Assembly: GCA_964576615.1 (NCBI GenBank)
Contig: CAZNUU010000002.1
Coordinates: forward strand, 27,428-91,427
Origin: an uncultured Candidatus Saccharibacteria bacterium
GTDB lineage: Bacteria > Patescibacteriota > Minisyncoccia > Phycocordibacterales > DATDWN01
DNA: 64,000 nucleotides
Direction: 5' to 3'
Shown: positions 42,944-48,084 of the stretch, in pieces
Layout of the letters: each line of letters starts with the position of its first letter
Numbering within the stretch: the stretch's first letter is position 1
The notes under the pieces: model-generated
The model's database searches: none
Told to the model about the DNA's origin: nothing
What the model saw: only the letters and a program-made list of their open reading frames with translations
Translations under genes and position numbers: made by a program

Positions 42944-45151
42944 TTATTTTTTTCTAGCTGCTTTAGGCCATTTCTCTCTTTGCGGCCCAGGACCATAAGC
43001 TTGATCTATAACTTTTTTGGGTCCAGAAAACTCTACAGATTCAGCTGGATTTTTGGGGACTTTAATATCAAAAGACACTACTGTTCCTCCAGTTCCATAA
43101 TTTGGTTGTTGCTCCCACCCCGGGGAAGTAAAGAAACCAAATTGATCCTTTAACAATTGATATAGGTAAGCTTTATCAGTTTGATTTGTACTTTGTGAAA
43201 TGAATTCGTGCCAAATATAATAATCTATCTCGTATTTGTATCCATCTTTTTGCATTTGGGAAATTATTCCGTCTAGAGCTCGCATTGATAAAACAGATTC
43301 TTTGAGTAAATACTTGATCGGTCTTGTTCCTCCTGCTTTAAAATAGTAGGCCTGATTAACTTCCTTGCCTGAGAAAACGTTTTGAGTCACTCGTGCGGCC
43401 TTGGCCAGATTCCATAATTTATCTACAAGAGCTTCAGGGACTTCCAAATTGCCATTTTTATCCATGATCTTCGAGATTAGCAATTGGAATAATTCATTAC
43501 TTGGCTCGGCTTCTTCTTCCAGGGCTCCCTCTGTTATTTGAGGTAAATAGTCATATTCAATTTTGTAAACTCTCGAAAGAAAAGCTGGATCCATGTCCTG
43601 TCTGTCTACATACCGTTCATCCCCTTGATTTAAGTTGCCAGTCATTATTACTCCATAACCTTCCTTTATCGTAACAACCGATCCGCTGTTCTGCTGAACA
43701 TTCACTTCATCCCCCACCCTTCTTGTTAAAATATGATTGAGACTTATAAGAAGCTCGTGAGGTATTGCATTCACTTCGTCAATTATAACTGGCCTACCTT
43801 CTTGCATAGCTCGGTATATTGGCCCGAGAAAAAAATTAGAAATTGTACCTCCCTTAAACTGAGTTAGATAAGTCTGCAGAAATCTGTCGTGAGCCCTGTC
43901 TTTTTCTTCCTCCGCCGCTTCAGGAGATAAAGCTGCGAGCCTTACTTTATTTTTTTCTACCCATTCTTCGTATTTTTTTTCAACATCAGCGACGAAGGTA
44001 TCTAGTTCATCTTTTTTAATCTTTTCTATATACATAATCTTATGACCATAAAACTCAGCACTCGACATATTTTTGGCCCCTGATATAACCAAGGCAGATC
44101 TTTGAGAAGCATCGATCTCATTTCTTTCTTTCTTCTGCATATCAGCTGATGCACCAGGATTTTGTAAAAGCCATTCTTCAAATTCTCTGTCCACTTTCTC
44201 ATCAATATCTGGGCGATTAGCTAATATAAAGTTTCTGGCTACATGCATCGCTAGCTCAGTCTTACCACTACCCAGGTGACCATAAATCATAACTGGTTTT
44301 CCTGCTCTAACATGGTCAACGATATCGTCAATATTATTTTTTACATAAGGGGTCTCTACAATTCTTCCCCTCTCCATATCAGTTTTATATTTTTTCAGTT
44401 CCTTTAAGTGGAGCCCATAATAAGCTTCTGGGCTAGAGGCCAACAATTGTTCTCTTCTAGAATGTCTTTTCTCAATATCCTCTCTAACCTCATCTAAAGC
44501 TTCTAATTCCAAACCACTTGGTGTACCTTCGATTCTTTTCAAAATAGAAACTTCTTCCTCATGAAGTGAATCTAGGGAGTCGCTTATGGATTTTTCCTCT
44601 CGAAGAGCAGTCTTCAGGTTCCCAAGTTTAAAACCTACAAATTGCCTCTCCAGTGATCCCTCAGGGCCCAATACTTGATCCAACATTCCTTTTAAATCTA
44701 GCTCCTTTTCAAGACCCTTTTCTACTATGCGTTGATGGCCTTCTTTATAAATCATCTCATCCCAATCATCTGTTCTCTGGTCTGCGGGAATTTGTGTTTT
44801 AGCATAGAGAAGCCGTCTTGTTTTTCTAAGTTGTCTTTCTGTGTCCTCAACTGATCTAACTACTCCAGAAACCAATGGCCAATCTACATTTTGATCTGCT
44901 GCAAATTCAACCGTATAGAAACCAGAGAGAGGATCTTCTGGTTTTGAATCACTAACAACCTTTACGGTATGAGGTCCTGGCGGAGGAGTTAGCCCAGGAA
45001 CAAGCCTTAGCGTCTTTCGCCCCCTTTGACTACTTTCCCAAGCTACAACTTGTCCAGATTTATTAAACTTCTCACTAAAAATCACATTAGAAAAAACTAT
45101 CTCTCTTTCTACACTCTCATTACTTTGATTTATTCCTTCTGGACCAGCCAT
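42944..45151 (-). CDS. Large AAA+ ATPase of the AAA_5/MoxR-like clade with long N- and C-terminal extensions
   Basis: 735 aa. Walker A IYGHLGSGKT, Walker B VIIDEVNAIP, sensor VIMTGN, Arg finger region RQDMDPAFLSRV. ~130 aa insertion between Walker A and B. Confidence 0.7.
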   Translation of the reverse strand: MAGPEGINQSNESVEREIVFSNVIFSEKFNKSGQVVAWESSQRGRKTLRLVPGLTPPPGPHTVKVVSDSKPEDPLSGFYTVEFAADQNVDWPLVSGVVRSVEDTERQLRKTRRLLYAKTQIPADQRTDDWDEMIYKEGHQRIVEKGLEKELDLKGMLDQVLGPEGSLERQFVGFKLGNLKTALREEKSISDSLDSLHEEEVSILKRIEGTPSGLELEALDEVREDIEKRHSRREQLLASSPEAYYGLHLKELKKYKTDMERGRIVETPYVKNNIDDIVDHVRAGKPVMIYGHLGSGKTELAMHVARNFILANRPDIDEKVDREFEEWLLQNPGASADMQKKERNEIDASQRSALVISGAKNMSSAEFYGHKIMYIEKIKKDELDTFVADVEKKYEEWVEKNKVRLAALSPEAAEEEKDRAHDRFLQTYLTQFKGGTISNFFLGPIYRAMQEGRPVIIDEVNAIPHELLISLNHILTRRVGDEVNVQQNSGSVVTIKEGYGVIMTGNLNQGDERYVDRQDMDPAFLSRVYKIEYDYLPQITEGALEEEAEPSNELFQLLISKIMDKNGNLEVPEALVDKLWNLAKAARVTQNVFSGKEVNQAYYFKAGGTRPIKYLLKESVLSMRALDGIISQMQKDGYKYEIDYYIWHEFISQSTNQTDKAYLYQLLKDQFGFFTSPGWEQQPNYGTGGTVVSFDIKVPKNPAESVEFSGPKKVIDQAYGPGPQREKWPKAARKK

Positions 45152-45229
45152 TTGAATATATGATTATGTCTTTAATTCTACCAATATGAAATCTATAAAA
45201 AAAGGCCTTATTTACGGGTAAAAATACAC

Positions 45230-45258
45230 TTGACAAAATACGTCCACCTTGCTATAAT
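45230..45258 (+). promoter_or_regulatory. Consensus sigma70 promoter TTGACA-17-TATAAT
   Basis: ttgacaaaatacgtccaccttgctataat. Confidence 0.7.
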
Positions 45259-45903: not shown

Positions 45904-45906
45904 TAT

Positions 45907-48084
45907 TTATAGTCTAACTCCCCTTAAATATTTTTTTAGGGCGATAGTGATAGCGGGTATGAGGTTTCCAATTTCAGCCCCTACAACTTCACCCTTTTTT
46001 TCTGCTTCCGAATTCCAAACATAGTTAAAATAATTTTTTTCTTCTGCAGAGGTCACGCCTATTTGAAATCCTCTAATGGCTACCCCAATTCCTTCCAATT
46101 CTCCTATTTTTTGTTTAGTTTTATCTGGTTCATTGGGTTGACCATCTGTGATTTCAAAAACAATTTCCATGATTTTCTCGGAGGCTATTTTTTCAGCATC
46201 AGCAGGAGTTATTGATTCCTGTATTTTTCTCAGAGCTTTATCATCATATGTCTGGCCCAAGTGCTGATTTAAATAACCAAATGTGTTTACAATGTCGACT
46301 TGGTCATCAAGTTGAGTCGAATCTGACCTAAGAGGTTTAATTTTTAGGGCAGTACTACCAAATACCCAAACTTCTGTATCGACCTCAAGTTTAGATTTCG
46401 TTATAGATCGATTCATCGCGAGGTAAGTATTAAATTCCTTTAAGGACGCCAGTACCAGAACAATAGCTTTTTTTAAGGTCGGTATTTTGACAGTATCTTT
46501 AGCTCCATCTCGTTTTTGAAACATAGATCCTGACAAATCACAGACGAGCCTGACCCTAATTAATTCGGGTTTTTCAATTAACTTATCTGTGCTTACTACT
46601 CTTTCCATTGCTCTTACTTTTTCAAATTCTCTTTTCTCCACGTTAGACCACTCTGCAATAACTCTAGGAATACTTAGCTCACCGGTTTTGAAATAACCAG
46701 CTCGAGATACATCTCTGCCTTTACTTGAACCCATGACAATATCTCGCCAAAGCCTTGATAATTCGTCGAGATAAGGAGCGATTTGTGCTTCGATCTCTCT
46801 AAATTCTTTGAGTACCTCTGGTTTCACAGCATTTTTTTCTGCCCAGATTCGATCAAGCTCTTCCTGAGCTTTTTTTGCTTTGTTCTCCAGCTCCTCTTCT
46901 TTAGCTTTATCTGCCCCTTTATTTACAGCTTTTTTTGCATTTTTCCCTTCTGCCTCCTTGTCCGAAAACTCTTCTATGTCTTTGTCGCCAATTTGATCAG
47001 GATTGTTATCTTCAAAATCTTCGTATTCATCGGCAAATGGGTTAAAATTGAAATCTTCTGATTCTCCTTCCTCTCCGCCAGCAGCACCTCCCTGAGGTTT
47101 TTCTTTTTTCTTTGGTTTTTCTGGCTTCCATTCTTCCAGATCTTTCATTAAGAGTTCGTCAAAGATTGGTTCAATAGTTTCTTCGATAATCTGGTAACGT
47201 CTTTTTGCTCGTGTATTTCTGCCTGTCCTGGGTTTAATAAATTGTTCAATTATTTGTTGAACAGTATGAGGTTTAACATCGAACATAATCTCTCTTTTCA
47301 AGACTTCTTCCACATCTGGTCCAACTTTTATCTCCTGATCTGGGATCATCTCGCGTCTTAAAAGATAATAGCCAAATTGCATATGCCGAGGTAATTTTGT
47401 GTAATCATTTTTCTCAAATAACTTTTCTTTATACAGTCGCCTAATTTCCTTGCCTCCCTTTCGCTTTTTTTCAAACCTAGGCGCTTTGCGCGAAACAATG
47501 TTATTTACGTAAATGTCATCGAGTTGATTATAAAAAGCTCGGCGAAATTCATATGTAACTTCTTCAATTGGGGTTAACTCTTCTCTATCTGGCCGCCTCT
47601 GCTTCGGCCTCTGTTGCATTTTGGCTAATGTCTCTTCATCCACCACTCCTGATTGCCTGTATTTTTCTACAATAAAGGGAGCAAGCTCTTTTGCCTTGTG
47701 CCTAAGATACTCGAATTTCCCCAATATTCCTTTGGGATCTTCAGATAAATCCCGGAAATGACTCAACTCATGAAGAGTGGCCCATAATATTTGTTCCTCT
47801 GTAAAACCTTTCTTAGCAAACCATTTCGTATCCAGATGAATTTCACCTTTTTCATAATCAATAAAAAAAGCATTGGAAAGTTTAAACCTGAGAGACACAT
47901 CCCGAGCGAAGGTCATGAAAAATCTCTGATAAGAATCTAGCATCTTTTGACCAGCTTCTCGATATTTTTCTAATTCTTCAGGCGAAATAGAAAATGTTTC
48001 TGGTTTATTTTCACTACCCTCTTCTGGCTCTGTTGGGCTTACGGAGTCAGCCATACTATCCGTTACCACTTCAATTGATTTCAT
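45907..48084 (-). CDS. Large protein with N-terminal HExxH metallopeptidase-like domain (DUF2201_N-like), acidic low-complexity linker and C-terminal vWA domain
   Basis: 725 aa. WATLHELSHFRD (HExxH). VWA MIDAS VCDLSGSM (DxSxS). Partner of the AAA_5 ATPase. Confidence 0.65.
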   Translation of the reverse strand: MKSIEVVTDSMADSVSPTEPEEGSENKPETFSISPEELEKYREAGQKMLDSYQRFFMTFARDVSLRFKLSNAFFIDYEKGEIHLDTKWFAKKGFTEEQILWATLHELSHFRDLSEDPKGILGKFEYLRHKAKELAPFIVEKYRQSGVVDEETLAKMQQRPKQRRPDREELTPIEEVTYEFRRAFYNQLDDIYVNNIVSRKAPRFEKKRKGGKEIRRLYKEKLFEKNDYTKLPRHMQFGYYLLRREMIPDQEIKVGPDVEEVLKREIMFDVKPHTVQQIIEQFIKPRTGRNTRAKRRYQIIEETIEPIFDELLMKDLEEWKPEKPKKKEKPQGGAAGGEEGESEDFNFNPFADEYEDFEDNNPDQIGDKDIEEFSDKEAEGKNAKKAVNKGADKAKEEELENKAKKAQEELDRIWAEKNAVKPEVLKEFREIEAQIAPYLDELSRLWRDIVMGSSKGRDVSRAGYFKTGELSIPRVIAEWSNVEKREFEKVRAMERVVSTDKLIEKPELIRVRLVCDLSGSMFQKRDGAKDTVKIPTLKKAIVLVLASLKEFNTYLAMNRSITKSKLEVDTEVWVFGSTALKIKPLRSDSTQLDDQVDIVNTFGYLNQHLGQTYDDKALRKIQESITPADAEKIASEKIMEIVFEITDGQPNEPDKTKQKIGELEGIGVAIRGFQIGVTSAEEKNYFNYVWNSEAEKKGEVVGAEIGNLIPAITIALKKYLRGVRL

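Follow-up and report, generated by a model that had tools for sequence, protein, structure and literature searches.

A 64,000-nucleotide (nt) stretch of contig CAZNUU010000002.1 (assembly GCA_964576615.1), from an uncultured Candidatus Saccharibacteria bacterium and referred to here as the window, carries on its reverse strand the genes for two large proteins. These are a MoxR/CobS-class AAA+ ATPase of 735 amino acids (aa; 42944–45151, from the list of open reading frames, ORFs) and an adaptor protein of 725 aa (45907–48084; ORF list, homologues and AlphaFold2 model), which comprises a HExxH domain, an acidic linker and a von Willebrand factor A (vWA) domain with a metal ion-dependent adhesion site (MIDAS). 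The original prediction for this locus described the two as a pair separated by a non-coding spacer with two small RNA (sRNA) genes, and both ORFs, the ATPase motifs, the HExxH motif, the acidic linker and an intact MIDAS were all found to be present. The spacer (45152–45906, 755 bp) contained no ORF of at least 60 aa in an ORF scan and, as predicted, holds two sRNA genes on the opposite strand to the protein genes, with perfect promoters, structured transcripts and terminators. As described below, these sRNAs belong to a conserved hairpin family that accompanies the pair in other candidate phyla radiation (CPR) bacteria, in loci where the ATPase has an additional N-terminal beta-strand domain (hereafter, N-domain).

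A promoter scan of the window placed the sRNA-A promoter at 45230–45258 and the sRNA-B promoter at 45572–45600 (both forward strand), each of the form TTGACA-17-TATAAT with a TG extended −10 element and a 12/12 match. These two were the sole matches to TTGACA-N14-TGnTATAAT in 64 kb, even when one mismatch was allowed (expected number 0.02). On the basis of promoter, terminator and fold, sRNA-A is ~233 nt long (45265–45497, forward) and sRNA-B ~300 nt (45607–45905, forward), with approximate ends in both cases, and both were more stably folded than shuffled controls (RNAfold z-scores of −3.7 and −7.25, respectively). Each contains two hairpins recognized by a covariance model (CM), all on the forward strand. 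In sRNA-A, hairpin 1 (45336–45362, E = 0.024) has a variant loop, UAGCUAC, and hairpin 2 (45370–45396, E = 0.00036) has the loop UAGCCAC at 45380–45386; an intrinsic terminator, consisting of a stem and a U-run, follows at ~45468–45497. In sRNA-B, hairpin 1 (UUAGCCACA, 45723–45749) and hairpin 2 (CUAGCCACG, 45758–45784) were matched with E-values of 0.00013 and 0.00043, in coordinate order, and the terminator (~45869–45903, forward) abuts the adaptor stop codon. The sRNA-B sequence is homologous to the spacer of the closest relative, locus L001 (nhmmer E = 8e-10), where the layout is the same (a pair of promoters and a pair of terminators, antisense to the genes). No Rfam 15 family was found for the sRNAs of the window, L007 and L077 spacers, for which the best scores were far below gathering thresholds.

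Across loci, the RNA family is characterized by one to four hairpins per RNA, usually as a tandem pair, each with a stem that varies and a loop fixed as the 7-nt sequence UAGCCA(C/U/A); GGUUAGCCACACC is an example. One or two such sRNAs of ~180–800 nt, presumably abundant, are present per locus, with near-consensus promoters on the strand opposite the genes, and a unit of promoter plus terminator was present in every RNA locus. To characterize the stems, hairpin instances were gathered by loop sequence alone; across 11 loci, 19 RNA units yielded 40 instances. All 40 were bordered by at least 3 base pairs, and the loop-closing pair was always U-A (24 instances) or C-G (16 instances). The 7-bp stem was 83.9% paired, compared with 49% in column shuffles and 33–44% when the partner column was slid, and the stem covariation score was 0.89 versus 0.26 in shuffles. 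The heptaloop, meanwhile, was invariant at five of its seven positions. RNAalifold applied to 16 tandem modules recovered the two hairpins unaided, and each of the 7 predicted pairs showed compensatory changes; in a typical tandem, a U-A-closed hairpin (as in UUAGCCACA) is followed 20–35 nt further on by a C-G-closed one (as in CUAGCCACG). On comparative grounds, we consider it established that the hairpin genuinely exists as a structured RNA element, that it is under structural selection, and that it forms part of what are, judging from the promoters and terminators, independently transcribed sRNAs.

The same hairpins could in principle act as DNA-level elements, such as repetitive extragenic palindrome-like sequences or operators, rather than as RNA. 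They are inverted repeats in intergenic DNA, and G-U pairs only modestly exceed A-C mismatches (14 versus 10), so that the strand is barely identified by these counts. Nonetheless, variable arms around an invariant centre are the reverse of what is expected of an operator, and each unit is preceded by a near-consensus promoter and followed by a U-tract terminator, both confined to a single strand. Moreover, G-U pairs outnumber A-C mismatches by 4 to 0 at the inner three pairs, and a DNA-level role is hence scarcely credible.

To follow the family beyond the window, 81 loci were retrieved (reference genomes supplied 21, metagenomes 50 and exact look-up the remaining 10), and the hairpin CM was scanned over both strands of 724 kb from 76 sources, comprising loci rather than whole genomes. 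All 37 matches with E <0.1 were intergenic, beside the pair and on the strand opposite the genes. Twelve loci had both the RNA and the N-domain (the window, L001, L007, L010, L022 and L072–L078, with L007 being identical to L033 and L043). In all 12 of these RNA loci the ATPase carries the N-terminal beta domain, while the hairpin was present in none of the ~45 loci without it, in which the ATPase starts at about residue 88. Loci outside the model's training set also had the RNA: L078 gave a CM match (E = 0.018) with promoter and terminator, and L080 had a perfect promoter, two UAGCCAA heptaloops and a terminator. In L077, the protein genes are adjacent and both RNA genes have moved to a position downstream of the ATPase gene, still on the opposite strand; as they nonetheless stay with the pair, the linkage survives rearrangement. 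By gene linkage, we regard the sRNA as established to be genetically coupled to the MoxR-vWA module. In a neighbor-joining tree (crude and without support values), lineages with the N-domain and RNA formed a basal grade, and loci lacking the N-domain (L013, L048, L014 and L041) were nested among them, which suggests that the N-domain and RNA were ancestral and were lost together repeatedly. A comparison by eye of loop position 7 (C or U) with N-domain residues showed no pattern, twelve sequences being too few for this purpose.

The position of the RNA genes is also relevant to whether they act in cis, as simple antisense regulators, which the original prediction had raised. Under such an explanation, strong opposite-strand transcription through the spacer would uncouple ATPase expression from that of the adaptor, or throttle it, by antisense or interference effects, and no partner would be expected for the RNAs as such. 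In every RNA locus, the RNA genes do lie on the opposite strand, between the protein genes or convergent with them. In the window, the sRNA-B terminator directly adjoins the end of the adaptor gene, and no intrinsic terminator was found for the adaptor mRNA, so read-through would give complementary RNA. However, the RNAs overlap neither coding region, neither window mRNA contains the loop's complement (GUGGCUA), and in L077 the RNA genes are found downstream of the ATPase gene rather than between the protein genes. Interference requires neither a conserved loop nor covarying stems, yet both have been kept over deep divergence, and the strict tie to the N-domain would be left unexplained. We therefore consider a purely cis-acting role improbable; what was found instead is a conserved structured family tied to the module and to the N-domain.

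Alternatively, the sRNAs may be sponge or other regulatory RNAs, similar to CsrB/RsmZ, that act on an RNA-binding protein encoded elsewhere and have nothing but the locus in common with the pair, in which case the N-domain might bind, for example, a substrate or the adaptor. Several identical loop motifs displayed on variable hairpins are a classic sponge design, and we only infer that the N-domain binds RNA. In addition, locus L074 has three extra UAGCCAU hairpins (12730–14320, forward strand) that were weakly matched by the CM (E = 0.13–0.5) and are situated 3–4 kb downstream of the ATPase gene. Against this, the pair is accompanied by the RNA in 12 loci in which all other neighbors differ, the linkage was kept after the L077 rearrangement, and RNA is missing from the loci without the N-domain. 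A trans-acting sponge thus seems unlikely to us. The CsrB/RsmZ RNAs resemble the family described here in having a short loop motif repeated on variable hairpins, strong promoters and paralogous RNAs. They differ in their motif (GGA rather than UAGCCAY) and in its copy number, which is lower here (one to four per RNA); no CsrA gene is linked to the RNAs here, which are tied to an AAA+/vWA pair instead. The extra L074 hairpins are near a partial transfer-messenger RNA (tmRNA) match (12070–12205), and the same region has two hammerhead-like cores (CUGAUGAG...CGAAAC) at ~13228–13257 and 13903–13927, which score below the Rfam gathering thresholds.

The ATPase has a Walker A motif (GHLGSGKT, aa 291–298), a Walker B motif (VIIDE, aa 455–459) and a sensor-1 motif (MTGN, aa 503–506), all of which are invariant or nearly so among 55 homologues, and its sole Pfam match above cutoff was AAA_5 (E = 4.9e-9). 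An AlphaFold2 model built with the 55-sequence alignment had a mean predicted local distance difference test (pLDDT) score of 83. The model, together with the alignment, divides the protein into four parts, all on the reverse strand. The N-domain (aa ~17–85, ~70 aa; 44897–45103) has six strands (aa ~19–83) and the conserved residues F, SS, RK, D, P, P and G, and is the candidate RNA-binding domain. It is followed by a long helical region (aa ~91–260, ~170 aa; 44372–44881), common to all members of the ATPase family, and by the AAA+ core (aa ~265–535; 43547–44359), which was delimited with the help of its motifs and contains sensor-1 residue N506. The fourth part is a strongly conserved C-terminal domain (aa ~540–720; 42992–43534) with the motif YLYQLLKDxFGFF...GWEQ.P.YG. 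The core had been thought to contain an insertion of ~130 aa; an insertion is indeed present, in the form of two separate helical segments (aa ~310–352 and 375–433) that together make up ~100 aa, each of which is missing in some homologues. Eight homologues (P0002, P0058, P0101, P0185–P0188 and P0216; 840–1650 aa) have long non-homologous extensions beyond the conserved C-terminal domain.

In a fold search, the closest structures to the ATPase were CbbQ (6l1q) and NorQ (9qh4), both with a score of 15.1, followed by dynein AAA modules (13–15), midasin (12.2) and McrB (11.2). The best phage-family profile match was PHROG 249, phage CobS (E = 4.9e-21), while Pfam and NCBIfam searches gave no CobS match for the ATPase, nor was there a Pfam CobS_N match. 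As both its core motifs and its closest fold have the features of the class, the ATPase is a MoxR-class enzyme (AAA_5, clade 7), and by analogy with CbbQ and NorQ it is presumably hexameric. The N-domain hidden Markov model (HMM) matched only the N-termini of these ATPases in all loci scanned. No stand-alone N-domain protein was confirmed in the database search, the only candidates being from a split ATPase gene (P0183, L078) plus a 142-aa protein (P0184). In L078 the ATPase gene (8001–10164) is split, owing to a frameshift or an assembly error, into two ORFs, one of 113 aa for the N-domain and one of 615 aa for the rest, and a cassette resembling a diversity-generating retroelement (bAvd plus reverse transcriptase, 11621–13118) is located ~1.5 kb downstream.

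The N-terminal part of the adaptor is a putatively zincin-like HExxH domain (aa ~35–320; 47125–47982, reverse strand; alignment and AlphaFold2), in which the motif LHELSHF supplies H105-E106-x-x-H109 (HELSH, aa 105–109, nt 47758–47772). These three residues are invariant among 40 adaptor homologues (one outlier being only 24% identical), as are the MIDAS residues D516, S518, S520, T612 and D647. In the AlphaFold2 model (mean pLDDT 81), the HExxH helix is preceded by three beta strands, and a disordered acidic linker, a long helix and the vWA domain follow. The acidic low-complexity linker (aa ~321–400; 46885–47124, reverse), recognized from the translation, gapped alignment and pLDDT, varies in length in the alignment and has pLDDT values <50 at aa 328–342. 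The vWA/MIDAS domain (aa ~455–722; 45919–46722, reverse) includes the motif DLSGSM (DxSxS at aa 516–520, nt 46525–46539) as well as T612 and D647, and with DxSxS...T...D on a vWA fold it is a MIDAS domain. The HExxH domain had been assigned to DUF2201_N (PF13203), a label that is not supported: neither the window protein nor, at E ≤0.01, any of 40 family members matched DUF2201_N or DUF2201, and no other Pfam family matched the domain in these proteins. The only Pfam match of the adaptor alone was to VWA_2, below threshold, and no CobT match was obtained from Pfam or NCBIfam.

Whole-adaptor fold searches were dominated by matches to the vWA domain rather than the HExxH domain, with scores of 20.2 for the Rea1 MIDAS domain (6qta), 19.7 for the NorD vWA domain (9qh8) and 19.4 for the human MDN1 MIDAS domain (8ql1). 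Among predicted viral structures (BFVD, searched with Foldseek), the best full-length matches were phage CobT-like proteins. Sequence and profile searches of the PDB with the ATPase, adaptor and N-domain returned nothing useful except for the vWA domain. Both proteins had been put at about twice the usual size; this holds for the ATPase (CbbQ has 267 aa and NorQ 254 aa), but not for the adaptor, as 570–780 aa is usual for CobT-like adaptors.

Homologues of the ATPase and adaptor were recovered at 45–63% identity across CPR classes, with the same contigs appearing in both lists of matches. Their hosts, represented by metagenome-assembled genomes, include Moranbacteria, Uhrbacteria, Magasanikbacteria, Spechtbacterales and Azambacteria. 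For the adaptor, 61 close CPR homologues share contigs with the ATPase. An exhaustive profile search of 1.84 billion representatives yielded 402 clusters (50% identity) at E ≤1e-30. Among the 81 loci, tblastn searches placed the vWA gene immediately upstream of that for the ATPase in almost every case where the flanking sequence sufficed, and the two are true partners, as predicted; the homology searches did not place the ATPase in a housekeeping family with a non-partner vWA gene. The other neighbors vary by locus, and include genes for ribosomal proteins, tRNA synthetases, glycolysis and type IV pili. In RNA-less subfamilies, the adaptor and ATPase genes are 20–90 bp apart or have a conserved 320–370 aa ORF between them. 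This ORF takes the position of the sRNA genes in L004 (6823–7893), L009 (3852–4961) and L012 (6984–7943, forward strand), and by gap size is probably also present in L023 and L025. It had no match in Pfam, NCBIfam or PADLOC, and may represent an alternative third component.

In the window, the genes 3′ of the pair encode GAPDH, RpiB, Rpe and a split transketolase, and those 5′ of the pair encode both ribonucleotide reductase subunits. The transketolase consists of two adjoining ORFs (38664–40577, reverse strand), one for the N-terminal thiamine pyrophosphate-binding part and one for the pyrimidine-binding and C-terminal part. A candidate −35/−10 promoter for the ATPase gene (45152–45190, reverse strand) ends just 3–13 nt 5′ of the ATG, and because of this short distance the ATPase mRNA, which is divergent from sRNA-A, is suggested to be leaderless or near-leaderless.

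Genes of central carbon metabolism thus adjoin the pair in the window, and also do so in L076, which would be compatible with an ordinary MoxR-vWA chaperone that activates a metabolic enzyme or inserts its metal cofactor, as do CobST, NorQD and CbbQO, with the RNAs being unrelated neighbors. The best structural and profile matches of the two proteins (CbbQ, NorQ, NorD, phage CobS and CobT-like proteins) are in keeping with such a role. However, none of the linked genes is a conserved client, the neighbors differ in every locus read, and norB/C, cobN and Rubisco genes are absent from these loci; in addition, cobN and cobalamin genes were found neither among the pair's annotated neighbors (window positions ~38.3–53 kb) nor among the genes tabulated for nine related loci. 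The family makes up a clade of its own and has large extra domains that are missing from CbbQ and NorQ, and a chaperone of this type would account neither for the conserved RNA nor for its co-distribution with the N-domain. We accordingly consider this explanation quite improbable.

The original prediction had further linked the pair to vWA-MoxR conflict systems of the type described by Kaur and Aravind and called for a search for a third component. Both protein superfamilies are indeed the same as in those systems, and here the vWA protein carries a fused metallopeptidase-like domain; such metallopeptidase-vWA fusions occur, if rarely, in vWA-MoxR conflict systems (PMC7159879). Nonetheless, no VMAP or effector gene was found in the loci read, PADLOC returned only weak P-loop matches for the pair, and the neighboring genes are of housekeeping type. 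The identity of 45–63% and stable gene order across CPR classes are, moreover, unlike the fast evolution and patchy distribution of defence genes, and a conflict or defence function is therefore very unlikely. Rather, the pair is a self-contained, vertically inherited partner module that does not have the appearance of a mobile or defence island, and its strong conservation amid housekeeping genes is more indicative of a core process, for instance the assembly or remodeling of protein or ribonucleoprotein (RNP) complexes, than of defence.

The protein architecture itself is of a known kind, since Iyer et al. (2021, PMC7824862) described jumbo phages in which MoxR is paired with a metallopeptidase-vWA fusion. 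As in CobS/CobT-type and phage pairs, an AAA_5/MoxR ATPase is encoded beside a partner of ~600–780 aa whose N-terminal domain is joined through an acidic linker to a C-terminal MIDAS vWA domain. Unlike CobS, the ATPase has more than double the length and includes a beta domain, 170 aa of helices, two core insertions and a C-terminal domain, and there is no CobN. To our knowledge, dedicated sRNA genes have been described for no CobST-like pair. NorQ/NorD and CbbQ/CbbO each comprise a MoxR AAA+ hexamer and a vWA adaptor, which activate nitric-oxide reductase or Rubisco. The pair described here differs from these in having no linked client gene, identities of just 14–17%, extra domains, a HExxH domain on the adaptor and an association with RNA. 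Rea1/midasin is a eukaryotic AAA_5 ring with a D/E-rich linker and a MIDAS domain that remodels pre-60S RNPs. Whereas midasin is one polypeptide of ~5000 aa with six AAA modules, here there are two genes and one AAA module; no ligands with ubiquitin-like (UBL) domains are known here, and we treat the similarity as a lead only. Within this known kind of system (MoxR plus a CobT/NorD-like MIDAS adaptor), the protein pair represents a new branch that is large, distinct and specific to CPR bacteria.

In the arrangement of protein and RNA genes, there is a resemblance to Ro60 (Rsr) and Y RNA (YrlA/YrlB), where the gene of a vWA/MIDAS protein is likewise found beside one or two structured sRNA genes, which can form paralogous pairs. 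The window and related loci differ in lacking a TROVE domain, the bulged-helix stem of Y RNA and any Rfam Y RNA match, and in having a UAGCCAY heptaloop and an AAA+ partner. Given the lack of a TROVE domain and of Y-RNA features, identity with the Ro60/Y RNA system was rejected. One linked RNA, in L081 (5672–6001, reverse strand), does have a tRNA-like element, as YrlA has. This RNA gene occupies the spacer, and the element is tRNA-Val-like and is followed by the terminator. Its score of 40 bits for the Rfam tRNA family was the only Rfam match above gathering, and two acceptor-stem pairs are mismatched. The L081 RNA recalls the tRNA-like domain of YrlA, but it could be a plain tRNA gene with a leader.

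Two further candidates for the identity of the hairpins were considered and rejected. TIGR-Tas arrays, known from CPR bacteria and phages, have alternating edge and loop repeats of 8–12 nt, 9-nt spacers and an adjacent gene for a Nop-domain Tas protein (PMC12045711). The hairpins here are isolated, with fully paired variable stems and a 7-nt loop, and no Nop-domain gene was present in the loci read. Mimicry of an anticodon loop or T-loop was rejected by inspection, as position 2 of the heptaloop is A rather than U33 and there is no UUCRA. In literature searches, no description of the sRNA family and no paper on a MoxR-vWA pair in CPR bacteria were found, and the loop sequence returned unrelated microRNA and primer matches only.

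Taken together, we favor the explanation that the ATPase, adaptor and sRNAs constitute a three-part CPR module in which the heptaloops of the sRNAs dock on the N-domain, a reading to which we assign a probability of roughly 0.5. The N-domains of the ATPase ring would each be able to dock on a heptaloop hairpin. Given the conserved basic and polar residues of the N-domain (SS..RK), binding of the heptaloop by this domain appears to be the most economical mechanism, and as there are several hairpins per RNA, several ring subunits may be served by one RNA. The RNA could scaffold, gate or target an ATP-driven MIDAS remodeling machine, or may belong to a client RNP, with the MIDAS adaptor gripping an acidic residue of the target, as in NorQD, CbbQO and Rea1. 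Lineages without the N-domain would also have lost the RNA, some of them having the 320–370 aa gene in the same position. A stronger version of this reading is tentative and, in our view, possible rather than probable: the module may be an obligate RNP in which the six N-domains of the hexamer hold hairpins while the adaptor engages a client, and may be part of the ancestral core biology of Patescibacteria. It would then be a bacterial AAA+ remodeling machine that depends on RNA, with a function analogous to that of Rea1/midasin on RNPs, and its genetics are reminiscent of Ro60 and Y RNA.

Several observations weigh against docking of the sRNAs on the N-domain. Sequence and profile searches gave no PDB, Pfam or NCBIfam match for the N-domain, and expression of the sRNAs is deduced from their promoters and terminators. 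The co-distribution of N-domain and RNA also has exceptions. L079, which was outside the model's training set, has adjacent genes and no RNA within its 6.3 kb, and together with L047 it is an N-domain locus on a short contig with adjacent genes and no canonical RNA. The loop is diverged in L081 (also outside the training set), where a strong antisense promoter is followed by an AGCCAAG heptaloop and the tRNA-like element. In L015, a divergent Uhrbacteria locus with an ATPase of 36% identity, the spacer has an antisense promoter-terminator RNA unit (7385–7770, reverse strand) with the loops CGGCCAC and CGGCCAG, which the hairpin model misses because the loops have diverged. The extra hairpins of L074 show that the RNA need not be strictly adjacent to the pair, and as the scan was of 724 kb, further RNA copies may be present elsewhere in the genomes. 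Finally, the association between N-domain and RNA may rest on few independent events.

MoxR-vWA pairs are widespread and poorly understood, and their known roles are in activating or maturing individual protein complexes; we know of no report of a MoxR-vWA system coupled to dedicated sRNAs. Patescibacteria represent a large, mostly uncultured diversity of organisms with minimal genomes, in which the pair constitutes a strongly conserved, lineage-specific MoxR-vWA family. The association between RNA and domain makes the function of this family testable as a binding hypothesis, that is, of the hairpin loop against the N-domain. Confirmation of this hypothesis would bring RNA into the model of MoxR chaperones, would define a compact RNA-protein recognition pair consisting of a 7-nt loop and a ~70-aa domain, and would offer a handle on a core cell function of CPR bacteria.

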